From NCBI GenBank assembly GCA_039796495.1, contig JBDKJQ010000063.1, positions 1 through 41,920 of the forward strand: 41,920 bases of DNA, in the 5' to 3' direction. Within the stretch, counting starts at the first letter, position 1; each line of letters opens with the position of its first letter. The notes below the pieces were generated by a model. It was given only the letters and a program-made list of their open reading frames with translations, was not told where the DNA came from and did no database searches. This stretch comes from an archaeon (lineage in GTDB: Archaea > Nanobdellota > Nanobdellia > Pacearchaeales > GW2011-AR1). Positions 10,677-41,920 of the stretch are shown here, piece after piece. The translations under genes were made by a program, and so were the position numbers.

Positions 10677-11894
10677 ATGGTGCATCTAGATAAAATTTTT
10701 GATTCTGTAAGTGAAAGAAGTTTATTCAAAAATAAACAAATCTTACAATCAAATTACACACCTGAAACAATTCCTCATCGTGACGAACAGATTGAGACTG
10801 TTGCTTCTATCCTTGCACCAGCTCTTTTAGGACAGAAAACAAGCAATTTATTTATTTACGGAAAAACAGGAAGTGGAAAAACTCTTAGTGTGCAGCATGT
10901 TGCCAATGAACTCTCAAAACGTGCCTATGAAAAAAATAGTTTGCGGATAGAATATTTAAATTGTAAGCTTAAAAAAATAGCAGACACTGAGTATAGGATC
11001 TTGGCAGAGCTCATAAAAAAACTAGGGGGAGTTGTTCCTGCGACAGGACTTCCTACTGACCAAGTATATCTAAAGTTTCTTGATATACTTGAAAATTCCC
11101 AAGAAAAATTATTAATCCTTATTTTAGACGAGATCGATCAAGCAGTTAAAAAAATTAACGACGAATTCCTTTATAATTTAACACGATTAAATTCTGAACT
11201 CAATAAGATACAAATCATTATCGTCGGCATCAGTAATGATTTGCGGTTTCTTGATATGATTGACCAGCGCGTTCGTAGCTCCTTAAGTGAAGAAGAGATT
11301 GTTTTTCCTCCGTATAATGCTCTTCAACTGCAAGACATACTACGAAAAAGAGCAGACGATGCTTTCAAAAAAGGCGTAGTCAATGAAGGTGTAATTGCAA
11401 AATGTGCGGCGTATGCTGCTCGAGAACATGGTGATGCGCGAAGGGCACTTGATTTACTTCGTGTCGCTGGGGAACTGGCTGAAAGGAATTCTCATGAGTA
11501 TATCAAAATAGAGCACATTGATATGGCCAACGATAAAATAGAACGAGATAAGATCTTAGATGTTATAGAGACTGGAACAAAACAGTTTCAGATGATTTTA
11601 TTCTCGATTATGGAGCTCACTGAGAGATCTAAGTCCCCTAAAAAGGCGCATACTAGTGTGTACACTGGAGATATTTTTGATTTTTATGAACAATTATGCA
11701 ACAAAAATGGGCTTGACTGTTTAACTCACCGACGGGTAAGCGATATCATCGCCGAATTAGATATGCTTGGGTTGATTAATGCGCGCGTTATCAGTAAAGG
11801 AAGACACGGGAGGATGAGAGAAATAAAATTAGTTATTCCAAGTAGTATAAAGTACAAAGCACGAGAAATCTTAATAGGAGGTCTTGGCATATAA
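10677..11894 (+). CDS. cdc6: Orc1/Cdc6 replication initiator (AAA+ plus winged helix)
   Basis: 405 aa. Walker A 'YGKTGSGKT', Walker B 'ILILDEID', sensor-2 'HGDARRALDLLRVA', C-terminal wHTH 'RRVSDIIAELDMLGLI'. Confidence 0.92.
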   Translation: MVHLDKIFDSVSERSLFKNKQILQSNYTPETIPHRDEQIETVASILAPALLGQKTSNLFIYGKTGSGKTLSVQHVANELSKRAYEKNSLRIEYLNCKLKKIADTEYRILAELIKKLGGVVPATGLPTDQVYLKFLDILENSQEKLLILILDEIDQAVKKINDEFLYNLTRLNSELNKIQIIIVGISNDLRFLDMIDQRVRSSLSEEEIVFPPYNALQLQDILRKRADDAFKKGVVNEGVIAKCAAYAAREHGDARRALDLLRVAGELAERNSHEYIKIEHIDMANDKIERDKILDVIETGTKQFQMILFSIMELTERSKSPKKAHTSVYTGDIFDFYEQLCNKNGLDCLTHRRVSDIIAELDMLGLINARVISKGRHGRMREIKLVIPSSIKYKAREILIGGLGI

Positions 11895-11929
11895 TTTATT
11901 TAACAATCCCATTTTCCAAGAGCTTCATC

Positions 11930-20082: not shown

Positions 20083-20448
20083 ATGAGAAAGGGTGTGTTC
20101 GCGTTTATTGTTCTACTTTTTGCATTGGCATTTGTTTTTGTGCAAACGACTGATACAGGGACTTCTGTGGAAACGCCGACGGATATTTCTCCGGACATTA
20201 CTGAACCTTTCCCGTCTTCTGATGTTTCTGATACTGAATTGCCTGTTGTTGAGTCTGAGGTTGCTCTTGAGAATGAAGATGTTGCCCAAGTGGAGAACGA
20301 TGCGGAAAGCGATGGGCATACAGAATCGGAAAGTTCTGGTTCTGAAAGCTCGGGTGAAGGTTCAGAAAAAAGTTCTGAAGGAAGCTCAGGAGGCGTCACG
20401 GGTGGCGTTATTTTGGACAACAGGTTTTTGGATTATTATTTTCAGTAA
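20083..20448 (+). CDS. secreted or anchored acidic Ser/Glu-rich low-complexity protein
   Basis: The internal ATG gives 'MRKGVFAFIVLLFALAFVFVQ' (signal/anchor), then D/E/S/T-rich sequence ending 'SSGGVTGGVILDNRFLDYYFQ'. The track start at 20029 would nearly abut the divergent gene's start codon (ATG at 20021-20023), leaving no promoter space. Confidence 0.55.
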   Translation: MRKGVFAFIVLLFALAFVFVQTTDTGTSVETPTDISPDITEPFPSSDVSDTELPVVESEVALENEDVAQVENDAESDGHTESESSGSESSGEGSEKSSEGSSGGVTGGVILDNRFLDYYFQ

Positions 20449-21595: not shown

Positions 21596-22354
21596 ATGGG
21601 GACTAATTCAGTTATCTATAATTATCTTAAACAATATTCTTCTCTCTACCCTATTGAAGATCTGCATAAGAAGATTATTTCAAAAGGTTATTCTGAAAAA
21701 GAATTTGAAGATGCGCTTGCTCAATTGCGTGAAGAGTCTTCCTCTAGATTGAATACTCCTACTCGTTCTTTATCATCTTCTGAACAACCTCTAAGAAAAA
21801 AAGGAAGCTCACTTATGTTCAAATTAGCCGGCATCGCTGGTATTTTGACTTTATTGCTTATAGTTTTTTCCTTTTTTACCGAGGGAATAGTTACCCCCCT
21901 ATCTATCTTGTTATCCTTGCTTTTTTCTGTCTTGTTCTTTTTAGGTTTTATCTACCTGGGAAGAAGATACGACCGACTTCTCATACAATTTGCAAGCTGG
22001 TTTTTTATCATCGTCAGTTTAGCTTTATTTTTGTTGTATATTACTTTGCAATTCCGTGCTGACCTGATTACACTTCCTTCTTTTGATGCAACCTCTTTTG
22101 TTGCAAATCCCACCGAAGCGTTTCAATCTTTGGGGATTACGATGGTGAGCGCAGTTATTGGTACTCTTGTTTTAGTTATTGCATTTGGTATTTTATTGGG
22201 AGTTGGATTTTTGCGATTGCACGATGCCGTTCCTCTTGCGAGAACAGTCGGCATTATCACTATCATTGGATTTTGCACGATGGTATTTATTGTCGGCTTG
22301 TTTTTTCTTTTTATCGCCTTCCTTTTGCAAATCGTCTTATTGCTAAAAGAATAA
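21596..22354 (+). CDS. polytopic membrane protein with soluble UBA-like N-terminal module
   Basis: 252 aa. N-terminal 'IISKGYSEKEFEDALAQL', a Ser-rich linker, then ~6 hydrophobic spans. Confidence 0.6.
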   Translation: MGTNSVIYNYLKQYSSLYPIEDLHKKIISKGYSEKEFEDALAQLREESSSRLNTPTRSLSSSEQPLRKKGSSLMFKLAGIAGILTLLLIVFSFFTEGIVTPLSILLSLLFSVLFFLGFIYLGRRYDRLLIQFASWFFIIVSLALFLLYITLQFRADLITLPSFDATSFVANPTEAFQSLGITMVSAVIGTLVLVIAFGILLGVGFLRLHDAVPLARTVGIITIIGFCTMVFIVGLFFLFIAFLLQIVLLLKE

Positions 22355-29013: not shown

Positions 29014-29559
29014 ATGAAATTAACCCGTTGCTTTGTTGCCACTCAATTATCACCTGCCGCGATTGCTGAAATCAAACGCATCCAAGAGGGCCTCATGGAC
29101 CGGTTTCATTTCGACGGAAAACTCACTGAACCGGAACAATTGCATCTCACTCTGAAATTTTTGGGAGAGATTGATGAGCCTACTTTACAGACTGTCAGAA
29201 AACAATTATTTGCTATTCATTTCGAACCCCTTTCTGTTGCTTTAATCAGCGTCGGTGTTTTTTCCTCACACACCCCGCGTATTGTCTGGATTGCACTCGA
29301 TGGGGCTGATGGGCTGCAACATGCGGTTGATAAAAGTCTTGAGCATTTATTTTCTATAGAAAAACAGTTTATGGGACATATTACTATTGCGCGTTTGAAA
29401 CATCTTGAAGAAAAAAAAGAATTTCTGCGTTATCTGAACCAACTGCACTGCTCAACACGTTTCACTATCGATAGGTTTTTTCTGAATAAGTCTATTCTTA
29501 CTCCTTCTGGGACAATTTATGAAACAATTGAGGAATATGTCGCCAGAATTACCTTTTAA
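29014..29559 (+). CDS. 2H phosphoesterase, 2'-5' RNA ligase (LigT/ThpR)-like
   Basis: 181 aa with the two H-x-T/S-x motifs 'HLTLKFLG' and 'HITIAR'. The start is 1 nt after the preceding stop. Confidence 0.8.
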   Translation: MKLTRCFVATQLSPAAIAEIKRIQEGLMDRFHFDGKLTEPEQLHLTLKFLGEIDEPTLQTVRKQLFAIHFEPLSVALISVGVFSSHTPRIVWIALDGADGLQHAVDKSLEHLFSIEKQFMGHITIARLKHLEEKKEFLRYLNQLHCSTRFTIDRFFLNKSILTPSGTIYETIEEYVARITF

Positions 29560-30230
29560 TCTTTGTGGCTGAGAATATCTTTAAATTCCTTTGCCTGGTT
29601 TTTCAAGACTTGGATGAGATTCTCTTCTGATGCATTGAACACGTTTTGGAGCGTGGAAAATTTTTCGAGAAGTTTTTGCGCTTTTTTTGGGCCAATGTTT
29701 GGAAATGATTCGAGAATATATTTTTTCTGTTCCTGAACTGTTTTTGGAATTCTTGCATGCAGTGAGAGCGGAGACTTCTTTTTCACTTGCTGTTTTGCTA
29801 ATGTAATAAGATATTTCGCCGTATCCTCGTGATCCACTGAAAAAATAATTGGTATACTATAATTGTTCATTACAGAAATAAGCAGCCCTCTCACTGCCTT
29901 TGCCATACCATCATTTTCTTTGTATATCTCTTTGAGACTTCCCTCGACTATCAGAAATTGTTTTTTGTATTCTTTTATCTGAATCAACTGATCTCTCAGT
30001 CGTTTACTGATCATTGAAGAGATTAAATCAGAAACTGTTTTTCGTTCTATGGCCGCCTCTCCGATTATATAATCTGCGATTTTTAATGATCTCATTTCCA
30101 GGGTTATCTCTGAGGAGGACTTTAATTCTGATAATACCAGAGAGTTTTTTTCATGAATATCTGCGATTATGATGGGAACTTTTTCAGGCTTTTGTTTTCT
30201 TTTCAATTTTTTGAAAATGTCGTGAAGCAT
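29556..30230 (-). CDS. ERCC4/XPF-type structure-specific nuclease with (HhH)2 domain (Hef nuclease half)
   Basis: 224 aa. 'IADYIIGEAAIERKTVSDLISS' (ERK nuclease motif) and C-terminal 'ILESFPNIGPKKAQKLLEKFSTLQNVFNASEENL' (HhH2). Confidence 0.85.
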   Translation of the reverse strand: MLHDIFKKLKRKQKPEKVPIIIADIHEKNSLVLSELKSSSEITLEMRSLKIADYIIGEAAIERKTVSDLISSMISKRLRDQLIQIKEYKKQFLIVEGSLKEIYKENDGMAKAVRGLLISVMNNYSIPIIFSVDHEDTAKYLITLAKQQVKKKSPLSLHARIPKTVQEQKKYILESFPNIGPKKAQKLLEKFSTLQNVFNASEENLIQVLKNQAKEFKDILSHKD

Positions 30231-30231
30231 G

Positions 30232-31791
30232 TTACAACAATTTTTGCTGTCCTTCTTTGTTTTCTTTTATGAAGAACTTTCCTTCATCCATGTCTTTTTT
30301 AATGTCGTCTATTGTCTTGTACATTTTTTTCTCCCTGCTTTTTGAAGCATAATAAAATATTTCATCTAAAGTGTCGGCAGTCATCAAAATAATAAGCTCT
30401 CCCTTCATCAATCGCGCTGTTCTTCCTGCTCGCTGAATTTTTCTTATCGCGCTTGGAATTGGTTCATAAAATATCACTGTGTTGACCTCTGGAATGTCAA
30501 GCCCTTCTTCTGCGATTGACGTTGCGCATATCACATTGATGTCTCCCTGTTTAAATTCATCCATGATCTCTCGCTGTTCTTTTTGGCTTAATCCTGAATC
30601 TGCTTTTTTAGCCTGCCCCACAAATACTTTTGAGCGAATGCCGGCAATTTCGTTTAGTTCAGCATTGATTTTAACGACGGTGTCACGGTATTGAGAAAAA
30701 ATAATCGTTTTATTCTTTGCATCTTCTTGTATAGCCGTTTCAATCAGGTGTTTTAACTCTAATAATTTTGGATGTTCTAGCTTTTTTGACATGAGATTAC
30801 TAATCCGTATGTACGCCTCGTTGAACTCAGGATGCTTCACAATTTGCTGCACTGCCTTTGACTTATTTTGTGCTGACTGCTCAAATAAGGATCTGAGGTA
30901 TTTATGCGCGCTGTATATTGTCTGCGTTTCAAGCAGCTCAATTAGATGAGAAAGCTTTATTGCCTGTGCGCATGCACTTATTCCCAACAGCGCATTAAAA
31001 TTTTTGTTTCCCTTATTTATCTGCGCTATCATTCTTGTCTGAAGCCTGAGAAGATTTGTTTTTGTCGGCGGATCAAATAGTAACTTCCGGTTTTTTAATT
31101 CTTCAATCTTTTTCTGATACATCTTTTTTATGATGGCTGTTATTTCTTTGAACTCGACTGGAAATTCTATCCTTATTATTTTGAAGTCGAGTTCTTTTAT
31201 GTACGGTTTTACGTCCTCGCTTTCGCGTGTACGGATTTCAATAGTTTCTATACCGAGATTTCTTGCGATTTGTTCTATTGTTTTTCTGTCAGTGCCTGGA
31301 GAGGCAGTAAGCCCTAGTACTTTGCGGTTTTTCGCCTGCTGTTTGTACTGCGCTGCAATAAAGTTGTAGGCATAATTTTTTAAACAGCGATGAGATTCAT
31401 CAATGATCAACAGCGTTACTTCACTCAGGTCATATATGTTATTCTTTAGATCATTTTGTATACATTGCGGAGTTGAAAAAATAATGTCTGCTGTTTCCCA
31501 TACCTCTTTTCTTTTTTCTCCTTTCGTTTTTCCGGTGAATAATGCAAGTTCAGCGAATAGCTCTGGAAGATGTTTTTTAAAATATGCAAGATGCTGCTCT
31601 GCTAGTGGTCTTGTGGGAGCAAGGAACACTGTTTTTGTCGCCGGGTATTTTTTTTGTATGTGTACTGACAGCATCAATGCAATCAGTGTTTTTCCTATTC
31701 CTGTCGGGAGCACTACCAGGCAATTCTTCTCTCTGCAGCTCTCAAAAATCTTTTGTTGATATTCCCGCGGCTGAATGTTAAGAATGTCCAT
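30232..31791 (-). CDS. Hef/FANCM-type DEAH-box helicase (Hef helicase half)
   Basis: 519 aa. 'VLPTGIGKT', 'LIIDESHR', 'LTASPG', 'ATSIAEEGLDIPEV', 'QRAGRTAR'. The stop TAA is followed by one nucleotide and then the nuclease ATG. Confidence 0.85.
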   Translation of the reverse strand: MDILNIQPREYQQKIFESCREKNCLVVLPTGIGKTLIALMLSVHIQKKYPATKTVFLAPTRPLAEQHLAYFKKHLPELFAELALFTGKTKGEKRKEVWETADIIFSTPQCIQNDLKNNIYDLSEVTLLIIDESHRCLKNYAYNFIAAQYKQQAKNRKVLGLTASPGTDRKTIEQIARNLGIETIEIRTRESEDVKPYIKELDFKIIRIEFPVEFKEITAIIKKMYQKKIEELKNRKLLFDPPTKTNLLRLQTRMIAQINKGNKNFNALLGISACAQAIKLSHLIELLETQTIYSAHKYLRSLFEQSAQNKSKAVQQIVKHPEFNEAYIRISNLMSKKLEHPKLLELKHLIETAIQEDAKNKTIIFSQYRDTVVKINAELNEIAGIRSKVFVGQAKKADSGLSQKEQREIMDEFKQGDINVICATSIAEEGLDIPEVNTVIFYEPIPSAIRKIQRAGRTARLMKGELIILMTADTLDEIFYYASKSREKKMYKTIDDIKKDMDEGKFFIKENKEGQQKLL

Positions 31792-31827
31792 GCAATAAGA
31801 ATTGACGGGAGTATTAATTTGTTATCA

Positions 31828-32562
31828 TTACATAAAAATCATCATTGAGAACAGCAAGTATAGAATGGCGAGACAACACCAGTTAAAGAATGAACCGAAA
31901 AATAATTTTGCGCCGTCAAGTGTACTGACCGGAAGCAGGTTCCATGCGCCATACATGACGGAAAATTTTGCTAGGTTATAAAAAAAATCTATGTCAGAAA
32001 ATTTATACATCACAAATCCTATCACAAAAATTCCTGCAAGTACGTACAATCCTGCTGCTACAGCGTATGCTGGATCTACTTCATGAACAAACTCTTTTCT
32101 GAATGCTCTTTTGTATCCGCTTGCTTTGAGCAATCGTATATGGGGAATGTTCTCGACGTTAAACTGCAAAAAGACCATTGGCTTGATATATCCGAGCGAG
32201 AAGAATGCCAGAAAAAAAGGCAAGACTAATCCTATCGGGAATGGTTTCTTTAAGTGAGATCTTTTATAAATTCCGTAACGAGAGAACTCCCAAAATTTAT
32301 GCTCTACCTTGATCGCTCTTCTTCTGCCTGCTATCTTTTTTGCTACAACGGTTGAGAATATTATAACCGAAAAAATTATTAACGAATAGAAAATGAGCAG
32401 TGGATCGTCAGGTATTTGCGGGAAAAAACTGATAAAAGAGGCAATAATTATTACGACAATGATTGATACTATTTCTTTTTTTGAAAATCCATAGTCACCA
32501 TACTGAAAATCTTCAACTACTCTTTCACCCCCTCTTTTTAATGGTTCATAGCGCTCACGCAT
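31828..32562 (-). CDS. polytopic membrane protein, site-2-protease (M50)-like but without HExxH
   Basis: 244 aa, ~6 TM. The C-terminal 'NLLPVSTLDGAKLF' matches the M50 N-x2-P-x3-LDG motif. No HExxH anywhere; the closest match is 'VHEVD'. Confidence 0.5.
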   Translation of the reverse strand: MRERYEPLKRGGERVVEDFQYGDYGFSKKEIVSIIVVIIIASFISFFPQIPDDPLLIFYSLIIFSVIIFSTVVAKKIAGRRRAIKVEHKFWEFSRYGIYKRSHLKKPFPIGLVLPFFLAFFSLGYIKPMVFLQFNVENIPHIRLLKASGYKRAFRKEFVHEVDPAYAVAAGLYVLAGIFVIGFVMYKFSDIDFFYNLAKFSVMYGAWNLLPVSTLDGAKLFFGSFFNWCCLAILYLLFSMMIFM

Positions 32563-32680
32563 ACTCTTCCTATGTCCATTATTTATATAAAGGTATTTAA
32601 TTTTGAAATTATTTTTTCTGGGAAAATCACTTTCGAGTATAGAGTGTTTTGAAAAACCTAAAATTCCAAACTCTCTAAGA

Positions 32681-32728
32681 AGGACTTTGATAAGATTTCC
32701 TTCGGAAATTAGGGTTATTCAAAGTCCT
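32681..32728. other. nested hairpin / candidate structured RNA or regulatory element
   Basis: 10-bp perfect outer stem (aggactttga / tcaaagtcct) encloses a 6-bp inner stem (atttcc / ggaaat, loop ttc). A second 6-bp hairpin follows at 32734-32750. Lies in a 330-nt divergent intergenic region. Confidence 0.3.
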
Positions 32729-32861
32729 CTATAGAAAATTTCTCATTTTCTAATCTGAAAAAATCCTTTCCTTTCAACAAGATTTTTCCATCACAAAAAT
32801 ATTTTCTAGATATTTTTGTTCTTTAAAGTTCTCTTTTAACATGAACTTTAAATCATAGAAA

Positions 32862-32873
32862 AGTATTTAAAGA
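32862..32873 (+). promoter_or_regulatory. TATA-box-like element
   Basis: 'agtatttaaaga' centred ~25 nt upstream of the ATG at 32893. Confidence 0.4.
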
Positions 32874-32892
32874 ACACTGGAGTTTTTAGGAT

Positions 32893-33204
32893 ATGCTGAA
32901 AATAAAAAAAGTAAGTGAAGTTATCGGGAAAAAAGTGTTCACTGACAATGGCGATTTCTTTGGAGAAGTAGAAGAGGGAAATTTATTAGAAAATAAAGTT
33001 GAGAGCTGGAGAATACGTGTTTCAGGTTCTATGGGGAGTTTTTTGGGAGGCGCAAAAGGCGTCATTATTCCTCATCAATTTGTACGGGCAATCGGAGATG
33101 TTGTATTAATCAGCAGATCAAGTTTACCATTAGAGGAAGGCGAAGACACTGTTGGTGAAACTGTTGATCTGAGTCAGGGAAAAGACGCTAGTGTTTCGAT
33201 GTAA
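32893..33204 (+). CDS. PRC-barrel protein with acidic C-terminal tail
   Basis: 103 aa. 'VIGKKVFTDNGDFFGEVEEGNL......IIPHQFVRAIGDVVLI' is the PRC-barrel pattern. Confidence 0.65.
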   Translation: MLKIKKVSEVIGKKVFTDNGDFFGEVEEGNLLENKVESWRIRVSGSMGSFLGGAKGVIIPHQFVRAIGDVVLISRSSLPLEEGEDTVGETVDLSQGKDASVSM

Positions 33205-33339: not shown

Positions 33340-33828
33340 ATGGTAGAAACATTTTTATTATCCCCGTTCATGGTTGACTACACGTTACCTTTTATCTTAG
33401 TTTTTGCTTTGATGTTTGCAATTTTGCAGAAAACAAAATTATTAGGGGATGAGGCGAAACGCGTGAATGCGATGATTGCGTTAGTGATTGGCTTAATGCT
33501 TGTTGCATTTCCTCCTGCACGAACGCTCGTTGTCTTGCTCATGCCCTTTTTGGCAGTGTTTGCTGTTCTTCTATTAGTGTTCATGCTCTTGTATGGGTTT
33601 ATCGTTGGAAAAAAAGAAGGAGATGTTTTAGGAAGGCCGTGGAAAATTGCATTCGGCGGAATATTAGCATTATCGCTCGTTAGTTATCTATTAATGGTCA
33701 GCGGTTATTGGGATATTGTGTGGAGTTTGTTTTTTGCTGGCGGAAGAAATCAACTGCTGATGACTGTCATCATGATTGCAGCTATTGTTGGTGTTATCGC
33801 TGCAGTGATATGGGGAGATAAGAAATAA
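33340..33828 (+). CDS. 4-TM membrane protein, paralog 1 of a tandem triplet
   Basis: 162 aa. Shared N-terminal motif 'LPFILVFALMFAILQKTKLLGDEAKRVNAMIALVIGL', followed by further hydrophobic spans. Confidence 0.6.
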   Translation: MVETFLLSPFMVDYTLPFILVFALMFAILQKTKLLGDEAKRVNAMIALVIGLMLVAFPPARTLVVLLMPFLAVFAVLLLVFMLLYGFIVGKKEGDVLGRPWKIAFGGILALSLVSYLLMVSGYWDIVWSLFFAGGRNQLLMTVIMIAAIVGVIAAVIWGDKK

Positions 33829-33905
33829 ATTTTATTTAGAAATTTTTCAAATCGAAATATATATAAACAACTCTTTTCTTTTTAGCATACTAAAGAGGTT
33901 TACAC

Positions 33906-34397
33906 ATGCCACCTGCATATAATATTTATGGGTTTTCAATCGGAGATTTACTAAACAGTTGGGCAGACATGGGCGTGTTTGCATACCTCTTACCCTTTTT
34001 GATGATTTTTGCATTGGTATATGGACTTTTAACAAAATTAAAATTACTGGGAGAAAACAGAGGAGTGAATGCAACAATTTCTCTTGCTTTTGGACTGTTA
34101 GCGTTACAGTTTGATTATGTCTCTGGGTTTTATGCAAGTATTTTTCCGTATGCAGGTATGGGTTTAGCTGTTTTATTGGTGGCACTTATTTTGTTAGGTT
34201 TAGGAAATGAGAATTGGAGTAAGAATTGGTTGTGGGGGGTTGTTGGAGGAATTATTTTTGTCATTGTATTAATGACGTCGGTGTCTGATTTGTTTTGGCT
34301 TGGAGGGGCTGCGAGCGGACTTGCAAATGCTGCTCCTGCATTATTAGCGATTGTTATTATTGTAGGAATAATGGTTTGGGTTATCCGCAGTCACTAA
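33906..34397 (+). CDS. 4-TM membrane protein, paralog 2
   Basis: 163 aa. 'LLPFLMIFALVYGLLTKLKLLGENRGVNATISLAFGL'. 'gaggt' lies 6 nt upstream of the ATG. Confidence 0.6.
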   Translation: MPPAYNIYGFSIGDLLNSWADMGVFAYLLPFLMIFALVYGLLTKLKLLGENRGVNATISLAFGLLALQFDYVSGFYASIFPYAGMGLAVLLVALILLGLGNENWSKNWLWGVVGGIIFVIVLMTSVSDLFWLGGAASGLANAAPALLAIVIIVGIMVWVIRSH

Positions 34398-34402
34398 TTT
34401 TT

Positions 34403-34912
34403 ATGGCAATCGATATTTCAGGAATATTTTTGTTTATGCCCATCTTTAGTTTTTTATTTGTTTTTTTTATTGTGTACGCACTGCTTGCAAGCACCAAAGT
34501 GTTAGGAGATAATAACATCATTAATGTGCCGGTGAGTTTAATCATGGCCATTATTTTCATGAGTTTTTCTTCACTTGATTTGTATATTCAGACGATCATC
34601 CCGTGGTTTATTGTCCTTGCAGTGTGCGTGTTCATGATACTTGTGATCGCTGGGTTTTCGACGGGAAAACTTGAGGAGATTATGAGCAAACGATTTTTCG
34701 GGTGGGTTGTCGTGCTTGTGCTGTTGTCCATTTTTTTAATTGCTGCAATTAAAGTTTTTAATCCTGTATTTCATCCTGACTTGATTATAACTTCGGGAGA
34801 AGGAACAAGCTTAATTGATCAATTTCGATATTCTTCTGACGGTCGAGTGTTTGGGACTCTGCTTTTAGTTATTGCAGCTGCTGCAGTCTCGTGGGTTTTG
34901 GTTAAGAAATAA
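34403..34912 (+). CDS. 4-TM membrane protein, paralog 3 (most divergent)
   Basis: Internal ATG 6 nt after the previous stop gives 'MAIDISGIFLFMPIFSFLFVFFIVYALLASTKVLGDNNIINVPVSLIM'. The track extension to 34295 overlaps paralog 2 and is Cys/Arg-rich nonsense. Confidence 0.6.
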   Translation: MAIDISGIFLFMPIFSFLFVFFIVYALLASTKVLGDNNIINVPVSLIMAIIFMSFSSLDLYIQTIIPWFIVLAVCVFMILVIAGFSTGKLEEIMSKRFFGWVVVLVLLSIFLIAAIKVFNPVFHPDLIITSGEGTSLIDQFRYSSDGRVFGTLLLVIAAAAVSWVLVKK

Positions 34913-34939
34913 TTTTACTCTTTTTATACAAGAACAATC

Positions 34940-35713
34940 TTATCTTACATAGTCTTCGAAGTTATCTTTCTTTTGATTTGTTGATCTTTCGGGAGATTCA
35001 TTTTTTTCCTGAGCAATCTCTTTTTCTTGTATTTTATTTTTTTTATCAGTCTGTTCGTTATCTCTCCTATTCATTATCGGGTTAATCATCTTGGAAAAAG
35101 AATTTTGCGTCGCCTTTAATTCATTTGCTATTGTTTCAACATGTTCACCGTAGCTCCCCATTTTTCGTATTAATGCCATCTGCAATTCATTTAATGTATT
35201 CTCTAATTTTTGGAGATTATTCTCGATTTCATTTATTTTTTCCGTCATATTCTTCCTAAACTTTGTTGCTAATGATAACTCTTTTTTCATGTCTTTCATT
35301 TTCTCGTCGATAATCTGCGTGGCGAGATCACCGATTGTTTCGTAATCAATTGATTGCGGAGACTGATACTCCGGATACTGTACAGGCATTGGTTGCTGGT
35401 ATTGCTCCTGTTCCTGTTGTGGATATTGTTGCGGGTTATATTCGGGATATTGCTGCTCCTGAGCTGGTTCGGATGGTGGCATTTGTGCTTGCGATTCAAT
35501 TGAAGGCTGGAGCTCTCCCGGTTCAAATTGCTGAGGAATATCCTGTTGCGGAGAGACTTGATTTGTTCTTATCAATTCTGATTTGATTTCTGATTGTGAG
35601 AGTGCTTCATTAATCTCTTTTGGAGAATATCCCTGCTCTTTAAGCGACTGGATAATCTGAGCTGTCGGTGTGCCGTTTCCTTTCATCTGCGAAATAATCT
35701 CTAATACTGCCAT
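34940..35713 (-). CDS. UBA-like N-domain, Q/P/Y-rich linker, C-terminal coiled-coil protein
   Basis: 257 aa. 'AQIIQSLKEQGYSPKEINEALSQ', then 'PQQFEPGELQP...QQYPEYNPQQYPQQEQEQYQQPMPVQYPEYQSPQ', then the heptad region 'KINEIENNLQKLENTLNELQMALIRKM'. The start is 1 nt after the upstream gene's stop. Confidence 0.6.
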   Translation of the reverse strand: MAVLEIISQMKGNGTPTAQIIQSLKEQGYSPKEINEALSQSEIKSELIRTNQVSPQQDIPQQFEPGELQPSIESQAQMPPSEPAQEQQYPEYNPQQYPQQEQEQYQQPMPVQYPEYQSPQSIDYETIGDLATQIIDEKMKDMKKELSLATKFRKNMTEKINEIENNLQKLENTLNELQMALIRKMGSYGEHVETIANELKATQNSFSKMINPIMNRRDNEQTDKKNKIQEKEIAQEKNESPERSTNQKKDNFEDYVR

Positions 35714-35714
35714 C

Positions 35715-36152
35715 TTATTTTTTGTTCTGCTTTAATTTATCGTTGATCATTTTTTCCACATCTTTTATTCTCGCAAGCTGTAGTGGTTGAAACATATCGT
35801 ATTGCCTCTGGAGAATGGTGAGCTCGGTTTTGCGTGCCATACTGTTCAGTTCATTCATAATGCGCTGCAGTGTTTGTTTTACCATTTTTATTTCATATTC
35901 CATTTCATTTATTTTTTTATTAATAGAGCGATCTTCATTTTCCTGATCTTCTTTGAGAGAAATAAAATTTTCTCCAATGAGCATCGTGCGATCCCGTAGC
36001 AGTCGCTGTTTTTCTTCCACCTCATTCAGTCGTGTTGCAAATTCAGAGAGCAATGAGCTTATAGAATCTTGATATTGTGTTTGTTCTACCATCTTTTTAT
36101 AATGTGTTATTTGGGGTTTAAATTTGTTGTGATTGATGATCTTAAAAGACAT
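35715..36152 (-). CDS. coiled-coil protein of unknown function
   Basis: 145 aa, predominantly heptad-like ('RLNEVEEKQRLLRDR', 'INEMEYEIKMVKQTLQRIMNELNSM'). The internal ATG at 36092 (MVEQTQ..) has a 'aaatttaaac' box ~28 nt upstream and may be the true start. Confidence 0.6.
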   Translation of the reverse strand: MSFKIINHNKFKPQITHYKKMVEQTQYQDSISSLLSEFATRLNEVEEKQRLLRDRTMLIGENFISLKEDQENEDRSINKKINEMEYEIKMVKQTLQRIMNELNSMARKTELTILQRQYDMFQPLQLARIKDVEKMINDKLKQNKK

Positions 36153-36154
36153 AA

Positions 36155-36165
36155 TTTATTTAAAT
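36155..36165 (+). promoter_or_regulatory. TATA-box-like element in a 33-nt divergent gap
   Basis: 'tttatttaaat' centred ~26 nt upstream of the ATG at 36186, and only ~10 nt from the annotated divergent ATG at 36152. Confidence 0.4.
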
Positions 36166-36185
36166 GAATAATCTCTTATTCTTGT

Positions 36186-36647
36186 ATGTTGATTGTTCAA
36201 AGTGCTATTGATAGTGAGCTGCGCACGTTTCTAGAAACAGACTTATCGGCGCGTTTTCGTTTTGAAGAGGGGAGAGATTTAGATGTAGCTATCAAAGAAA
36301 TTCTTAGCAATAGAGATATTTTCAGCTTTTTGACGATTCATCTTCCTGAAAGACATGGCTTGCGGCTGGGGAATGTTGGATATTATGATGGCGAACGAGT
36401 TTATCATAATTATGGATTGACTATTGGAAGGGAAGTTCCTCGTAAAACTGTCCTTTATAGCTGTGAGAGTCTTGGAATTGAATGTTATTATGACGACCGG
36501 GCAAAACAAACAATGCAATTTTCCGATCATTTACCTCGCTTAGACTTTACTTATGTAAATGGCTATCCTTCTCCGATGGAGTTTTGTACAAAAATAAAAA
36601 AGTCTTTTATAGATTTTCAACGATATCTTATTAATTTTGATCTTTAA
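36186..36647 (+). CDS. hypothetical soluble protein immediately upstream of the secretion-type ATPase
   Basis: 153-aa ORF with no TM and no recognisable motif. Co-oriented with the ATPase, 67 nt upstream of it. Confidence 0.5.
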   Translation: MLIVQSAIDSELRTFLETDLSARFRFEEGRDLDVAIKEILSNRDIFSFLTIHLPERHGLRLGNVGYYDGERVYHNYGLTIGREVPRKTVLYSCESLGIECYYDDRAKQTMQFSDHLPRLDFTYVNGYPSPMEFCTKIKKSFIDFQRYLINFDL

Positions 36648-36714
36648 AAATTATGTTTTTTTGCTTAGCGCAACTTTTAATAATAACTCTTGTTTTGTAA
36701 AGAAGGAGAAAGAG

Positions 36715-38994
36715 ATGCTATTCAAACCCGGGACGAAACTATATTCGTATGAAGTCATCAAAGAAGAGGGTAGCAAGACGTTATACGTGAATTATTTGGG
36801 AGCGAGCTTTGTGCCTAACCTTGCCGATGCAAGTGATGTTATGACAAGGACGATTGATCTTTTGATAGAAGCAACCGGCGTTTCCCGGATTGTGTTTGTA
36901 CAGCAACGAAACTATAGCTATAATACTGAGCAGACATTTATGCTACAAGAAATAGCAAATCTCCATGTTTTTCTCACCAAACAAGAAAAAATTCTTTATC
37001 CATCGAAATTATCGATTTTGAATACTGATAGGGTCGGCAAGCGATATAATGATGTTGCTTATTTGTTAGTACGGTTAAAAAGCGATCCGATCGCATGCTT
37101 TGTTGAACTGAAAAAAATTATTGCACAGGAACGAAATGAACTTGAAAAAGTATCGGATACCATGAAAATAGACCAGCTCAGTTATGTAACGTTGTTGGAA
37201 AAGTTTGAACATTTATTAGAAAATACCGAGCTTATAAAAAAATCAAAAAAATATCTTGAAGACGGTTATCAGCGTGCGATTTATCATAATTTTTTCAGGC
37301 CTGAAATTATTCCTAACTTTACATTTACACGATTAGTTGCAAGCATACCTGCGGATGCCCGCATCATTGACCAGTACGAGATCGGGGAGTCATTTGACCG
37401 CTCTGTTGTTACTATCCTGAAGCGGGAGAGCGATGCAAAATATATGTATCATCTTATGCCTCCGGAGTATTCTCTGGAAGAAGAGATGCAAAACTTGATT
37501 AATTTGGCTAGAAATGTGCTTATTGAGCATCAGCCGAAAGCAGAAGAATTTACTGATCCTGAGAAAACACGACAAGTTTTTTTTAATGTTTCACGGGATC
37601 TGTTGCGTGATCTGGCAGAAAGCAAGAAAATCAATCTTGAGTATAAGGATCTGAATGTGATGGCAAAAATTTTAGTACGACATACGATCGGTTTTGGACT
37701 TGTTGAAGTGTTGTTAGAAGACCGAAATATTCAGGATGTGGTTTTGAATGCGCCTATATCTTCAAATAATATTTTTTTACGGCATCAGACGTATGATGAA
37801 TGCATTACTAATATTATCCCTTCACGGGAAGATGCTGATTCATGGGCTGCAAAATTCAGGATGATTTCTGGAAGACCTCTTGACGAGGCGAATCCTATTC
37901 TGGATACTGATCTAAGCTTGGGGAATATCAGATCACGAGTAGCAGTCATTCAGCAGCCGCTGTCACCTCAGGGATTGGCATATGCAATTCGAAGACATCG
38001 GGAAAGCCCGTGGACCTTGCCTTTATTTGTCAAAAATAAAATGTTAAACAGTTTTGCTGCAGGTCTCTTAAGCTTTTTGATTGATGGTTCACGAACCCTT
38101 CTTGTTGCTGGTACTCGATCAAGTGGTAAAACAAGCTTGCTTGGAGCATTGCTTTTAGAGATCATGCCGAAATATAGAATCATTGTATTAGAAGATACCG
38201 CGGAACTTCCGGTCGATGCGATACGAAAGCTGCATTATGACATTTTGAGAATGAAAGTGAGAAGTGCTCTCGTGAAAGAAAGTGCTGAAGTCGGTGCTGA
38301 TGAAGGAATACGAACCTCCTTGCGATTGGGAGATAGCAGCTTAATTGTAGGAGAAGTGAGATCAATGGAAGCACGTGCGTTATATGAAGCAATGAGAGTT
38401 GGGGCGTTGGCAAATGTTGTTGCAGGTACTATTCATGGTGCTTCACCGTATGGTGTCTTTGATAGAGTTGTCAATGATCTAGGCGTTCCTACCACCAGTT
38501 TTAAGGCAACTGACTGTATCATTGTCGCAAATCCGGTGCGCACTCCTGATGGATTGAGCGCAGTGAAGCGGGTTATCCAAGTTACTGAGATCAGAAAACA
38601 CTGGACGCGTGATCCGGAAGAAGAAGGGGGATTTGTTGACTTATTAAAATATAATGTTGAAAAAGACGAATTAGAAGCAACTGACGAATTAATTAATGGA
38701 GATTCTGAAATGATTAAGGCCATTGCAGCAGGTGTGAAGGGATGGGCTGGGAATTGGGACGCAGTGTATGATAATATCTTATTACGCGCAAAAATAAAAC
38801 AGGAAGTTGTGGATTTAAGCGAAAAATTCAAGCGACCGGAGATACTCGAGGCAGATTTTAATTCATTAAGCAATAATATGTTTCATCAGTTTTCCAAGGA
38901 TGTCCAGGATGAGTTTGGTTTGCCGCTCAGTGATAAGGTATTTCCGTTATGGAAAACATGGGCATTGCGGGAATTGAAATCGAGATATCAATAG
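36715..38994 (+). CDS. FlaI/PilB/GspE/VirB11-superfamily secretion or type IV filament ATPase with extended N-terminal region
   Basis: 760 aa from the ATG preceded by 'aaggag' (6-nt spacer). Walker A 'VAGTRSSGKTSLLGAL', Asp/Walker B 'RIIVLEDTAELP', 'LIVGEVRSMEARALYEAMRVG', His box 'AGTIHGASP'. The Walker A lysine is near residue 470. Confidence 0.85.
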   Translation: MLFKPGTKLYSYEVIKEEGSKTLYVNYLGASFVPNLADASDVMTRTIDLLIEATGVSRIVFVQQRNYSYNTEQTFMLQEIANLHVFLTKQEKILYPSKLSILNTDRVGKRYNDVAYLLVRLKSDPIACFVELKKIIAQERNELEKVSDTMKIDQLSYVTLLEKFEHLLENTELIKKSKKYLEDGYQRAIYHNFFRPEIIPNFTFTRLVASIPADARIIDQYEIGESFDRSVVTILKRESDAKYMYHLMPPEYSLEEEMQNLINLARNVLIEHQPKAEEFTDPEKTRQVFFNVSRDLLRDLAESKKINLEYKDLNVMAKILVRHTIGFGLVEVLLEDRNIQDVVLNAPISSNNIFLRHQTYDECITNIIPSREDADSWAAKFRMISGRPLDEANPILDTDLSLGNIRSRVAVIQQPLSPQGLAYAIRRHRESPWTLPLFVKNKMLNSFAAGLLSFLIDGSRTLLVAGTRSSGKTSLLGALLLEIMPKYRIIVLEDTAELPVDAIRKLHYDILRMKVRSALVKESAEVGADEGIRTSLRLGDSSLIVGEVRSMEARALYEAMRVGALANVVAGTIHGASPYGVFDRVVNDLGVPTTSFKATDCIIVANPVRTPDGLSAVKRVIQVTEIRKHWTRDPEEEGGFVDLLKYNVEKDELEATDELINGDSEMIKAIAAGVKGWAGNWDAVYDNILLRAKIKQEVVDLSEKFKRPEILEADFNSLSNNMFHQFSKDVQDEFGLPLSDKVFPLWKTWALRELKSRYQ

Positions 38995-39097
38995 TAACAT
39001 CGCTTTTCTGGACGTTAATTTATTCTCTGGAAAAATGAAATTTACAGCAATGTATTTAAAGCTGTTTTCACTATTTTTTTTGTTACACCACACGCAA

Positions 39098-41920
39098 ATG
39101 GTTTTCAAGAGGTACATTAAGAGAGGTGGAAAGCTGTTTGGACCTTATTATTATGAGTCCTATCGAGATGAGAAAGGAGTTGTCCGAAAGAAATATATCG
39201 GCACCGATCTTCCAGTAAGAAGGACTGCGCCTCGAAACGTGTACCTTTTTATTTTGTTCGGTATTTTATTATGCACTTTCTTATTCTTTTTTTTTAGTAA
39301 TAAAGGTGGTGTAACTCTATTTCATATTTCTCTCTCAAAAATTTCCGGATATGTTGTCAGCTCTTTGGCAGAGGAGACTGTTGTTGAACAGTTTGATAAC
39401 GTTATTGATTTGGAAATTATAGAGCCACTTACTCTTAATGGGGAGGCAGTAGGCACTAACAAAAATGAGCGTATGGATTTTGATGTGGAGGGAGGATTAC
39501 GACTCTATTTTAATGTACTTGATTATGATACGTACGTTGATCAGATAGCAGAGAAGAGTTTAAAGCAAGCGGCGAATAAAACCAGTGAAGAGATTATTCC
39601 AGAAGAGAGTTTCTCTCAGGATGAATCTGAAGAAAACCTTCCTCCTGTTGAAGAAGAACCTGATGATACAATCGATGATGATATTGTAGTGCAACCAGTG
39701 CCTATCGAAGAAGATCGTGGACAAGAAGAAAATCTACAAGAAGGTAGTAAGGATAAAGATACGTCGGAAGACGAGCCTACCAGTAATTCTTCTGGCGAAT
39801 CGAATCCGGAAGAATCTTCTCAGTCCGATTCTGTCTTAGAAACACAACCTGTTGAAGAGGAAGAGGCTGAAGTTGAAGAAGAACCTTCGAGGGAGGTAGT
39901 GCAATCATCTGACAATAAAGATGAACTTGCCCAAGAATCTCGGGGTGAAAATGAAATTGCTGCTGAGCCAGAAAGTAGTGCTCCCATAACCGGTAATTTC
40001 ATGAGATTTTTTGGACTTGTGGGCAGAGTTATTGGAGTTGAAGAGGAAGAGGCAGCCGATGATTTAGCGGAAGATACAGGAGCGCTTGAAGAAAGTAATG
40101 AAGCGAAAAAAACTTTTGAAGAAATTTCTTTAGAAACGCTTCAGCAAACAATTGAAGAATTGAATAAAGAAGAACTTGATGTCATTGAGGAGAATTCTGT
40201 CGTAGAAATGGATGAAGATGAGTTTGTCATTGCTCTCAATGAGAGTGCTGCTCAGGAACATGATGTTGATTACAAATGGGCATATAATGTTGCATTAAAA
40301 GATTATCATTTTTTGGCGAGTATTACGGTTACCAGTGAAGAGGAGATGGGAATGTATGATGAGACTTCCTTGAAAATAGGGAATACCTTGTTAAGTTTTC
40401 AGGATTTAGTTGATGCGGGATATACTGTTAGATTTGAAAAGCCGCTTATTACCTCTGTAGGAAAGGAAGTTGAAAAAAAAGAAATAGAAATTATTGAGAT
40501 AAATCAAACGGAAAAAAGTGCTGAAGATACGCCGACCGAAATAGAGGATGAAGAACTTTTGGAAATTCCGGTTGAGACGCCTGAAACTTCTGGTGAGAGT
40601 GTAGTGCAACCTGAAATTCCTCAGGAAAATCTTGCAGAAGAAAATGAAACTGAACAGGGTGTAGAGGAAAATGCATCTAATTCTTTGGGAACGCAGCCGG
40701 TTGAGGGTGATGCTGGTGAAGGTGAATTGGAGAATGATTCTGAAGAAGTTCCCGAAGAAACTTTAGATTCTGGTGAAAACGAAATTTCAGAAGCTGTAGT
40801 GCAACCAAGTGAATCTGTAGAAACTCCTGAAGAAAATATTCCTACAGAAATTACTAAAACGGAAACACAAGAATCTGAACCCGTGGAAAGTGATTCTTCT
40901 GTTGAAACTGGCGAGCTTGCTCCTATCACTGGAAATTTTGCGAGATTTTTTGGATTAGTTGGCAGGGCTATCGGAGTTGATGAACCCCTAGTTGAGGATG
41001 AATATTATGAACATACTATGGCAGTATATATTGAGCGAGATTTTTCAGAGGCGTATACATCAGACAAATTAGTTATCGGAAAAGACTTTGAAGATATTGA
41101 TGGGAATGGCGAATTAAATGTCGGAGATATTATTATTTTAGATCCCTCACTCAAAATTATTCCCTTGAGCAATGCCATTCATTTAAATGAAGACAGAAAT
41201 TTTATCAGGAATATTTACAATGAAACTAAAGACAGAGATGATGTGTGGGCTTTTGTTAACAATAGTCATTATGTCCGTGCCCACTTTCAGGAACCACTCG
41301 GAAAACATAATGATATCACGGTTTATGCGAGAATGCTTAATTATACGGAAGACAGTTCTTCCGCAACTATAGAAATCTATAAGGAGAATAGCGATGAGAA
41401 TGTTGCACTTATAGAAAATATAACTACTGAAAATTTTTATTCTACTCTTTTGACTGGACTGAATGACAGCGAGAAATATGATACATTCTATCTGAAGATA
41501 GTTGGTAATGATTCTCTCTCAGGAATTGAATTTGATTATATTGTTGACCCGGTTACCACGCCTGCTCTTGAGTTTGTTTCTCCATCTCCGGCGAATGCGA
41601 CAACGACTGCTAATTTTAGTGTCAGCTTTAACACCAGCATTGAAATTGGAAACCTCAGTGATGTTAAATGGAACTGGAATGGAACGAATTTTAGCTTGTA
41701 TAATCAGAGCGTTGCTCTTCTGTTTAATTTTGATAATAGAAGCGTTTTTGGAGAAAATGACACCCGTATTGTTGATTTTTCTACTAACCAAAATAATGGC
41801 ACTGCGTATCTTGGTGGAAGAGTTAATATCACAAACTGTAAATTTGGCAATTGTTTTACTTTTGACGGTAATAATGATTACATTAATGTCAGTGATAGTA
41901 ATAGTTTAGATCTTACGACT
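39098..41920 (+). CDS. giant membrane-anchored surface protein (5' part; open to the window end): cytoplasmic basic N-motif, TM, two acidic disordered modules, globular modules, start of a LamG/concanavalin-like domain
   Basis: Not in the ORF track because it has no stop. I translated 941 codons by hand in the frame of the ATG at 39098 without meeting a stop. 'MVFKRYIKRGGKLFGPYYYESYRDEKGVVRKKYIG', TM 'VYLFILFGILLCTFLFFFF', long D/E/S/P-rich stretches, and the end 'NCKFGNCFTFDGNNDYINVSDSNSLDL' (LamG-type pattern). In-frame upstream ATGs at 39035 and 39050 are possible alternative starts. Confidence 0.8.
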   Translation, partial: MVFKRYIKRGGKLFGPYYYESYRDEKGVVRKKYIGTDLPVRRTAPRNVYLFILFGILLCTFLFFFFSNKGGVTLFHISLSKISGYVVSSLAEETVVEQFDNVIDLEIIEPLTLNGEAVGTNKNERMDFDVEGGLRLYFNVLDYDTYVDQIAEKSLKQAANKTSEEIIPEESFSQDESEENLPPVEEEPDDTIDDDIVVQPVPIEEDRGQEENLQEGSKDKDTSEDEPTSNSSGESNPEESSQSDSVLETQPVEEEEAEVEEEPSREVVQSSDNKDELAQESRGENEIAAEPESSAPITGNFMRFFGLVGRVIGVEEEEAADDLAEDTGALEESNEAKKTFEEISLETLQQTIEELNKEELDVIEENSVVEMDEDEFVIALNESAAQEHDVDYKWAYNVALKDYHFLASITVTSEEEMGMYDETSLKIGNTLLSFQDLVDAGYTVRFEKPLITSVGKEVEKKEIEIIEINQTEKSAEDTPTEIEDEELLEIPVETPETSGESVVQPEIPQENLAEENETEQGVEENASNSLGTQPVEGDAGEGELENDSEEVPEETLDSGENEISEAVVQPSESVETPEENIPTEITKTETQESEPVESDSSVETGELAPITGNFARFFGLVGRAIGVDEPLVEDEYYEHTMAVYIERDFSEAYTSDKLVIGKDFEDIDGNGELNVGDIIILDPSLKIIPLSNAIHLNEDRNFIRNIYNETKDRDDVWAFVNNSHYVRAHFQEPLGKHNDITVYARMLNYTEDSSSATIEIYKENSDENVALIENITTENFYSTLLTGLNDSEKYDTFYLKIVGNDSLSGIEFDYIVDPVTTPALEFVSPSPANATTTANFSVSFNTSIEIGNLSDVKWNWNGTNFSLYNQSVALLFNFDNRSVFGENDTRIVDFSTNQNNGTAYLGGRVNITNCKFGNCFTFDGNNDYINVSDSNSLDLTT
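39980..40039 (+). repeat. intragenic peptide repeat copy 1 'APITGNFMRFFGLVGRVIGV'
   Basis: 20 codons, in frame, directly after the first acidic module. Confidence 0.85.
40919..40978 (+). repeat. intragenic peptide repeat copy 2 'APITGNFARFFGLVGRAIGV'
   Basis: 18/20 aa identical to copy 1 but only 47/60 nt identical by hand count. 9 of the 11 differing codons are synonymous. Confidence 0.85.

Follow-up and report, generated by a model that had tools for sequence, protein, structure and literature searches.

The locus described here raises the question of how an ATPase that drives type IV filament assembly could work in a gene neighbourhood that encodes neither a membrane platform protein nor pilins. 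The stretch of DNA analysed (the window) is an entire 41.9-kb contig of a fragmented NCBI metagenome-assembled genome (MAG) with the locus-tag prefix RL557. The gene in question, RL557_859 (36715..38994, plus strand), encodes a 759-amino acid (aa) type IV filament assembly ATPase of the T2SSE/PilB/FlaI superfamily. A preliminary description of this DNA had preferred a different machine, formed by the ATPase and its neighbours and possibly deploying an adjacent giant surface protein, and had kept as a fallback the explanation that the canonical partners are encoded elsewhere. The comparative data do not uphold the preference and bear out the fallback, as another contig (L006) of the same MAG was found to carry a gene for a TadC-like platform together with eight or more pilin-like genes. 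With a probability of about 0.8, the ATPase serves as motor in a type IV pilus-like filament system, one that is standard in a large group of DPANN archaea labelled Pacearchaeota, Woesearchaeota, and Nanoarchaeota, and whose operon is split in this genome.

Every open reading frame (ORF) of the gene order given in the preliminary description was found in its place. The lack of platform and pilin genes near the ATPase gene, also reported there, holds for the whole window: searches with hidden Markov models (HMMs), in which the positive controls worked, detected no TadC-family, T2SSF, or Peptidase_A24 (A24) gene anywhere in the 41.9 kb, and the window contains no pilin operon. Class III signal peptides were called by a heuristic rule (a basic N-terminus, a [KR][GAS] site, and a hydrophobic helix), and cleavage, marked below by a slash, is predicted only. 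The sole plausible class III-like N-terminus in the window, MRKG/VFAFIVLLFALAFVF..., belongs to a 121-aa acidic, Thr/Ser-rich protein (20083-20448, plus strand) and could equally be an ordinary Sec signal peptide.

The ATPase matched Pfam T2SSE with 53.6 bits (cut-off 24.9) over residues 413-605. The motifs GTRSSGKTS (466-474), IVLEDTAEL (490-498), GEVRSMEA (546-553), and GTIHGASP (571-578), which had been pointed out earlier together with a Walker A lysine near residue 470, were confirmed, the lysine being K472. The Walker A motif, the Asp box, the Walker B motif, and the His box follow each other in the expected order and align with those of afGspE and CpaF; with all catalytic motifs present, the enzyme is intact. 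Its best sequence match in the PDB was afGspE (2oap; E 2.6e-31, residues 213-606), followed by CpaF (E 5e-22) and FlaI. Relative to 2oap, the protein has about 190 extra residues at the N-terminus (residue 213 of the query aligns to residue 26 of the chain) and about 100 at the C-terminus. The unusually late Walker A motif noted before is real and corresponds to a family-specific N-terminal domain, a feature already recorded for subclade 4F ATPases (PMC4858521, supplementary figure S4). In the AlphaFold2 (AF2) model, residues 1-215 (predicted local distance difference test score, pLDDT, 82.7) form an alpha/beta unit plus a helical bundle, and a Foldseek search with this model gave no PDB fold match for the N-terminal domain of about 210 residues (best E 1.0). 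The homologs of the ATPase number in the thousands; the best 120 are 68-100% identical, mostly about 760 aa long, and come from archaea labelled Nanoarchaeota, Pacearchaeota, or Woesearchaeota. Seven of these 120 (P0017, P0020, P0022, P0026, P0051, P0062, and P0098), with lengths of about 1270-1280 aa, contain an intein (PF14890) and a LAGLIDADG domain (PF14528), and a more distant 1253-aa ATPase (L090, 1567-5328) likewise carries intein and LAGLIDADG domains. The pilus ATPase has been invaded by inteins repeatedly.

Relatives of the ATPase are encoded in at least 451 species-representative genomes. The best 80 of the 451 loci obtained in the scan of these genomes were analysed, and the counts below are matches among the loci in which the position concerned is visible. 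The usual order in the 80 loci begins with a Hef gene and an M50-like gene, both on the minus strand, and continues with a PRC-barrel (PRC) gene and a row of two or three genes for proteins with four transmembrane (TM) segments, designated TM_A, TM_B, and, where present, TM_C. These are followed by two minus-strand coiled-coil genes (CC257 and CC145), the ATPase gene, a gene for a protein of about 720 aa, the pilin-like genes, and an A24 prepilin peptidase gene. The polytopic protein of about 720 aa is encoded directly downstream of the ATPase and on the same strand in 59 of 65 loci. A conserved 334-aa pilin-like gene was present in 40 of 48 loci and an A24 gene in 19 of 38. CC145, always on the opposite strand and adjoining the ATPase gene, was recorded in 70 of 75 loci, and CC257 in 66 of 69; the frequencies of the remaining genes were 49/53 (TM_A), 49/56 (TM_B), 46/53 (PRC), and only 33/65 for the third 4-TM copy (TM_C).

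The closest relative on a long contig, L002, with an ATPase 80% identical to that of the window, has a PRC-barrel gene, three 4-TM genes (160-169 aa), two minus-strand genes, the ATPase gene, a gene for a 719-aa protein, about 13 small genes, and a Peptidase_A24 gene. The complete layout was also seen in the P0005 and P0013 loci, and the operons of L002, L094/L095, and the P0013 locus end with the A24 gene. A 4-TM row, a divergent coiled-coil pair, the ATPase, a TadC/FlaJ-type platform of about 720 aa, 7-13 pilin-like genes, and often A24 make up the ancestral and prevalent layout. The idea of a type of locus devoid of canonical partners is contradicted by the orthologous ATPases, which do have canonical neighbours. 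Two of the loci with this archaeal operon bear bacterial names, namely L024 (JAFCCB010000001.1, 'Candidatus Dojkabacteria bacterium') and L035 (JAUUWR010000013.1, 'MAG: bacterium'); their ATPases are 74-75% identical to that of the window, and the contigs are probably mis-binned or mislabelled in public MAGs.

On the strength of sequence and model comparisons, the 720-aa protein can be assigned as a very divergent but genuine platform of the TadC/FlaJ type (T2SSF), because members of its family match T2SSF, and profile alignments, fold matches to SpoIIIAB, and the TM topology point the same way. The family is large, with 1,166 clusters at 50% identity reaching E <= 1e-3. The 719/720-aa protein itself gave no Pfam or NCBIfam match, and the T2SSF assignment came via distant members of the family. 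When 63 diverse members were scanned singly, 29 matched Pfam T2SSF (best E 1e-15) and five matched Spore_III_AB; the distant member P0388, which adjoins an intein-bearing T2SSE ATPase, has a precomputed T2SSF match. In hhalign comparisons, the profile of the diverse family aligned with a haloarchaeal T2SSF profile over exactly the second T2SSF domain (probability 51%, E 1.5e-4), and the family aligned with the TadC-type partner of a Haloterrigena ATPase with a probability of 99.4% (E 4e-21). In the AF2 model of the protein (pLDDT 69), some 9-10 helices span the membrane and two helical domains lie in the cytoplasm; the sole high-probability Foldseek matches of this model were local ones to SpoIIIAB (probability 0.92). 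SpoIIIAB has a GspF/PilC-like helical bundle. The family profile found only spurious L28 matches among PDB sequences, and a profile of low diversity did not match one Haloferax T2SSF protein. With the 720-aa protein divided into two halves, no better than E 0.01-0.04 was reached, and the internal duplication was not significant. The plasmid search for further canonical TadC sequences gave only five records.

The genes that follow the platform gene are rich in predicted class III signals: in 40-44 loci, the 7 kb that follow the 719-aa gene contained 1.06 class III-type N-termini per kb, vs. 0.04 per kb in the upstream flanks. The median was seven pilin-like genes with such signals per locus, and the run of pilin-like genes in the DPANN loci comprises 7-13 genes. 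In L002, at least eight small proteins encoded downstream of the platform show the class III pattern, e.g., MNKKG/FELTITTLVLIIIAIL, and the rule gave 12 matches. In a marine relative, an opposite-strand DUF5615/DUF433 pair, which looks like a toxin-antitoxin pair, lies between the platform and pilin genes (L094, 8600-9173; L095, 7332-7905).

In the genome from which the window derives, the operon is broken between the ATPase and platform genes, since the platform and pilin genes lie on contig L006 of the same MAG and the ATPase gene on the window contig. The second-best match of the L002 platform is RL557_179 (76% identical), which shares its locus-tag prefix with the window ATPase and lies on the 13-kb contig L006. 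Contig L006 encodes, in order, ribosomal protein S6e, a tRNA synthetase, a 146-aa pilin-like protein, a 100-aa product, and the 720-aa platform, then no fewer than eight further class III-type proteins, a KaiC/RecA-like ATPase, and a transposase fragment; nine class III candidates were counted on this contig. The 146-aa protein (2437-2877), encoded just upstream of the platform gene and beginning with MSYKKA/QSGIITTILIILLVLAAIVIV, is a candidate major pilin. A KaiC/RecA-like ATPase (Pfam AAA_25, KaiC-type) ends the pilin cluster both here (11361-12179) and in the P0005 locus (a 293-aa gene), where other loci carry the A24 peptidase, and it may be a further component of the pilus system. The fragment of a DDE transposase at the contig end (12703-13098) is consistent with a rearrangement associated with an insertion sequence and with an assembly break in the MAG. 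A second split was found in a marine relative from one TARA sample. In L004, the ATPase gene is followed by unrelated genes, and in L094, from the same sample, platform, pilin, A24, HIT, and EF1 genes occur with no ATPase gene upstream; the downstream end of L094 is that of the intact L002 operon. The ATPase without platform or pilins in the window arises from a broken operon in a fragmented MAG.

CC257 (34940..35713, minus strand, 257 aa) and CC145 (35715..36152, minus strand, 145 aa, divergent to the ATPase gene) encode cytoplasmic coiled-coil proteins with no TM segment, and the stop codon of CC145 and the start codon of CC257 are 1 nt apart (TAA-G-ATG). The CC257 protein has a small helical domain at its N-terminus, followed by a linker rich in Q and P and by a coiled coil, and its C-terminus is a conserved tail of the form F-E-D/x-Y-L/V-R. 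The 4-TM row, all on the plus strand, starts with a small PRC-barrel-like protein (32893..33204, 103 aa), followed by TM_A (33340..33828, 162 aa), TM_B (33906..34397, 163 aa), and TM_C (34403..34912, 169 aa counted from the ATG at 34403). An upstream TTG had been given as the start of TM_C; this is corrected to 34403 on the basis of the orthologous MAIDISG... N-terminus in L002. The three tandem 4-TM proteins are true paralogs (27-30% identity, E 1e-12 to 1e-17), with 29.9% identity between TM_B and TM_A (E 8e-17) and 27% between TM_C and each of TM_A (E 1e-14) and TM_B (E 3e-12). Their family comprises 140 ORFs in 61 loci, the distant locus L091 included.

No significant relatives of CC145, CC257, or the 4-TM families were found in Pfam, NCBIfam, PHROGs, or the PDB, where only coiled-coil noise was obtained, and hhalign showed no relation among them, with TadC, or with the two small proteins encoded next to the Haloterrigena ATPase. 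For the CC145 profile, the PDB sequences that matched best belonged to the cell-division protein ZapA (two entries, E 0.004 and 0.01, at about 20 bits), too weak for an assignment, and a FlaC_arch match was seen weakly in seven of 40 members amid generic coiled-coil noise. DUF7310 was matched by one of 40 members only, which is insufficient, and DUF7626 marginally by 13 of 40 CC257 orthologs. A resemblance noticed by eye between the N-terminal domain of CC257 and the start of the window ORF 21596-22354 was rejected, as BLAST and HMM comparisons showed no relation. Orthologs of the PRC gene match Pfam PRC weakly. A conserved linkage of the neighbours to the ATPase, on which the earlier proposal depended, holds for the coiled-coil pair and for the 4-TM paralogs, both retained as far as L091, and fails for the 153-aa and giant genes described below. 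The ATPase thus has a conserved partner in the coiled-coil pair; the 4-TM paralogs probably also belong to the pilus system, and the link of the PRC gene to this system is doubtful.

The giant surface protein gene (39098..41920, plus strand) is still open at the window end, and its 941 codons encode an N-terminal basic motif, a single TM anchor at residues 48-66, acidic repeats, and the start of a ConA/LamG-like region. The complete ortholog in L010 has 2757 aa with Laminin_G_3, pentaxin, and FG-GAP domains. The preliminary designation as a LamG surface protein is supported by this ortholog and not by the window itself, where Pfam detected no LamG domain in the 941 residues encoded. Both in the window and in L010, the ATPase gene is immediately followed by the giant gene. 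Relatives of the protein occur near the ATPase in only four of the 80 loci and at variable distance. Because no platform or pilin genes come after the complete copy in L010, where a small minus-strand gene (by eye, it looks like a PIN-type toxin) is next, the giant gene cannot be seen as having inserted into an otherwise intact operon.

Different giant proteins (1050 to >2757 aa) have in common the N-terminal motif KRYIK.G...YGPYYYESYRD..G.V.K.Y.G, encoded at 39098-39200 in the window and from 13908 in L009, 12783 in L010, and 14054 in L046 onward; it looks like a cytoplasmic tag or anchor module of giant DPANN surface proteins. Within the giant ORF, a 66-nt direct repeat (39979-40044 and 40918-40983; 79% identity at a distance of 939 nt) encodes APITGNF.RFFGLVGR.IGV, and both copies are preceded by a long acidic stretch, which points to a recurring module that includes a hydrophobic or amphipathic element. 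The 153-aa soluble ORF (36186..36647, plus strand), situated between CC145 and the ATPase gene, gave no match in Pfam, NCBIfam, or PHROGs. Two of the 80 loci (L010 and L028) have homologs of it, with about 35% identity and always between CC145 and the ATPase gene; in L002 the corresponding gap is about 90 bp and contains no gene. With four and two of 80 loci, respectively, the giant and 153-aa genes show no conserved linkage to the ATPase. The giant gene is a sporadic variable neighbour, and the 153-aa gene, although real, has been inserted only sporadically into the divergent promoter region; neither is a component of the system. Other genes of the window look, by eye, like archaeal replication and repair genes (Orc1/Cdc6-, PolD-, and Hef-like), and the orthologous Hef genes of related loci contain DEAD/Helicase_C and ERCC4 domains.

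From what is established for the type IV filament family, the course of assembly may be outlined. The A24 prepilin peptidase would trim the pilins, the hexameric ATPase would dock on the cytoplasmic domains of the TadC-like platform, and ATP hydrolysis would lift the pilins from the membrane into a filament, whose role in an episymbiont would most likely be attachment. Judged by linkage only, CC145 and CC257 would most likely bind the ATPase, possibly via its unique N-terminal domain, and act as a cytoplasmic scaffold or regulator, and the 4-TM paralogs would be membrane accessory subunits.

Several observations weigh against a pilus-like system with a split operon and these accessory parts. 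As regards pilin processing in the window's genome, no A24 peptidase gene was found on L006 or in the window. The whole-chain AF2 model of the 720-aa protein had no significant global Foldseek match, and P0122, the MAG's own TadC ortholog, matched neither Pfam T2SSF nor any NCBIfam model; its assignment is transitive because only other family members match T2SSF. The roles proposed for the coiled-coil and 4-TM proteins derive purely from linkage. That L006 and the window come from one organism is deduced from binning, similar GC content, and matching identity levels rather than from a closed genome. Binning of MAGs is prone to error, related Pacearchaeota are not told apart by their tetranucleotide composition (all at r 0.88-0.98), and the P0122 contig was also recovered from a Joint Genome Institute (JGI) metagenome and a Logan run; L006 might then be mis-binned from a related Pacearchaeota, the split would be unreal, and the window's organism would have lost its platform and pilins and kept an orphan or repurposed ATPase. 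This is very unlikely, given that RL557_859 and RL557_179 carry one NCBI MAG locus-tag prefix and that the GC content of L006 (0.39) is closer to that of the window (0.364, and 0.40 at the 3' end) than that of any other sampled relative (0.29-0.345). The identities to L002 are also consistent (80% for the ATPase and 76% for TadC), the ATPase has kept all its catalytic motifs, and the same split recurs in the marine relative. Even less credible, and largely refuted by the comparative data, is the new platform-less machine in which the ATPase, the 4-TM paralogs, the coiled-coil pair, and the 153-aa protein would deploy the giant adhesin. The window does lack a platform gene, a pilin operon, and A24, the giant gene does follow the ATPase gene in two loci, and the 4-TM and coiled-coil genes are truly conserved beside it. 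The same 4-TM and coiled-coil genes, however, accompany a TadC-family gene directly behind the ATPase gene in the 59 of 65 loci, the two genes peculiar to the supposed machine are as rare as described above, and the MAG has TadC and pilins elsewhere. The giant protein also carries its own N-terminal TM anchor, and a protein anchored in this way could be inserted via the Sec pathway without a dedicated ATPase.

How many of the neighbours belong to the pilus-like system is a closer matter. The Hef nuclease and helicase genes, the gene for a 244-aa M50-like membrane protein, and the PRC gene (29556-33204 in the window) are as strictly syntenic as the pilus genes in relatives with 65-80% identity. 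Gene order within this set is weak evidence of function, because the Hef and M50-like genes, which are surely unrelated, are equally syntenic. It is possible, and the less probable view, that only the ATPase and perhaps the coiled-coil pair belong to the pilus, and that the PRC and 4-TM genes form an unrelated membrane module (e.g., for the envelope or division, with the M50-like protease) that is merely collinear. The rearranged loci (L016, L036, L021, L034, L045, L049, and L070) speak partly for it: the coiled-coil pair always stays divergent beside the ATPase gene, the PRC gene and 4-TM row of L016 and L036 move with the M50-like gene and not with the ATPase gene, and L034, L045, L049, and L070 have the coiled-coil pair, the ATPase, and TadC with no 4-TM genes nearby. 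In L016, on the other side, the 4-TM row ends up directly beside the relocated platform gene. The distant locus L091 also argues against a merely collinear module. Its ATPase is 45.6% identical over the full length, including the N-terminal extension, its platform is 29% identical, HMM searches recovered both coiled-coil proteins (CC145, E 4e-19; CC257, E 3e-11), and two 4-TM paralogs lie about 0.7 kb upstream of the coiled-coil pair, the ATPase, and the platform, despite different flanks (MazE, fibrillarin, and Nop5, with no Hef or M50-like gene). The PRC gene was not found in L091. The 4-TM linkage at deeper divergence is provided by this single locus. The contigs of two distant lineages, L092 and L093, are too short to show the upstream side.

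A large group of DPANN archaea thus possesses all the genes of a type IV pilus-like system. In Pacearchaeota-type loci, the genes for the platform and the pilins have no Pfam or NCBIfam name and are labelled 'hypothetical', and no description of the platform/pilin set, the ATPase N-terminal domain, or the accessory families was found in the literature searched. A preprint on groundwater episymbionts took type IV pili components as missing from DPANN archaea and used pili to separate Candidate Phyla Radiation (CPR) from DPANN cells in cryo-electron microscopy (cryo-EM) (10.1101/2020.05.14.094862). A corrected annotation would alter the reading of such cryo-EM images and models of DPANN host attachment. 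The coiled-coil pair, the 4-TM paralogs, and the ATPase N-terminal domain are testable candidates for lineage-specific machine parts. A tentative and rather improbable extension is that the three together represent a DPANN-specific elaboration of the type IV filament machine, e.g., a cytoplasmic ring and an extra membrane sub-complex for host attachment or penetration, overlooked as TadC and the pilins escape annotation.

Among the known systems, subclade 4F comes nearest. Its ATPase (arCOG01818) is extended by an unusual N-terminal region with cysteines that halobacteria and nanoarchaea have not conserved (PMC4858521); the subclade has a specific 9-TM TadC (arCOG01814) with pilins after it and a unique intracellular coiled-coil accessory protein, arCOG07564 (PMC4858521). 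ATPases of the 4F type are known from nanoarchaea without identified pilins (PMC4858521; Makarova, Koonin & Albers 2016). The closest annotated relative of the window ATPase is encoded on a Haloterrigena plasmid (42% core identity; hhalign probability 100, E 4e-45, residues 205-672); this locus was called 4F by its layout only, and the identity of its membrane protein with arCOG01814 is likewise inferred. The DPANN loci share with 4F the order of ATPase, TadC, and pilins, the extra N-terminal region of the ATPase, and the presence of a cytoplasmic coiled-coil protein as a putative accessory, and the Haloterrigena membrane partner is homologous to the DPANN 720-aa family (99.4%, as given above) and also escapes Pfam T2SSF. 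They differ in that the N-terminal 200 or so residues of the DPANN ATPase did not align with the haloarchaeal enzyme by hhalign, in that the coiled-coil pair and 4-TM paralogs do not detectably resemble the small neighbours of the haloarchaeal enzyme, and in the run of 7-13 pilin-like genes, often with A24. From these likenesses, the system may be described as a relative of subclade 4F, forming a DPANN branch whose accessory genes are specific to its lineage, 4F membership proper being unproven.

With the GspE of A. fulgidus (AF0659, 2oap) and the euryarchaeal pilus ATPases of clade 2 (arCOG01817), the DPANN system shares the two-domain ATPase core and the catalytic boxes. The canonical TadC of clade 2 (Pfam T2SSF 1e-25 in Haloferax) is, however, only marginally similar to the DPANN platform, and the clade-2-type ATPase of Haloferax is only 25.5% identical to that of the window. 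The archaellum (FlaI/FlaJ/FlaH, or ArlI/J/H) has an ATPase of the same superfamily, some sources automatically annotate the orthologs as 'FlaI', and the KaiC/RecA-like ATPase of L006 and the P0005 locus falls in the FlaH/ArlH family. On the other hand, the ATPase scored 135.9 bits against the NCBIfam FlaI equivalog NF058587, below the cut-off of 550, and no archaellin, FlaF/G, or FlaC/D/E gene was present in the neighbourhoods listed. VirB11-type ATPases of conjugative type IV secretion systems (T4SSs) were also considered and rejected, since the scores for TIGR02788 (55.5 bits vs. 250) and TrbB (74.6 vs. 304) were both below the cut-offs, and no T4SS genes (VirB4, VirD4, or relaxase) occurred in any neighbourhood listed. 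The system is neither an archaellum nor a VirB11-type T4SS. The Tad/Flp pilus (CpaF/TadA, TadB/TadC) resembles it in that CpaF is the second-best PDB match of the ATPase, the platform is TadC-like, and one source names a member 'TadB'; the DPANN system differs in being archaeal, with a single membrane, no secretin, no CpaE-type partner, and other accessory proteins. Taken together, the system is known type IV filament machinery with variations of its own: an unannotated platform and pilins, an ATPase N-terminal domain unmatched among solved structures, and two conserved accessory families.

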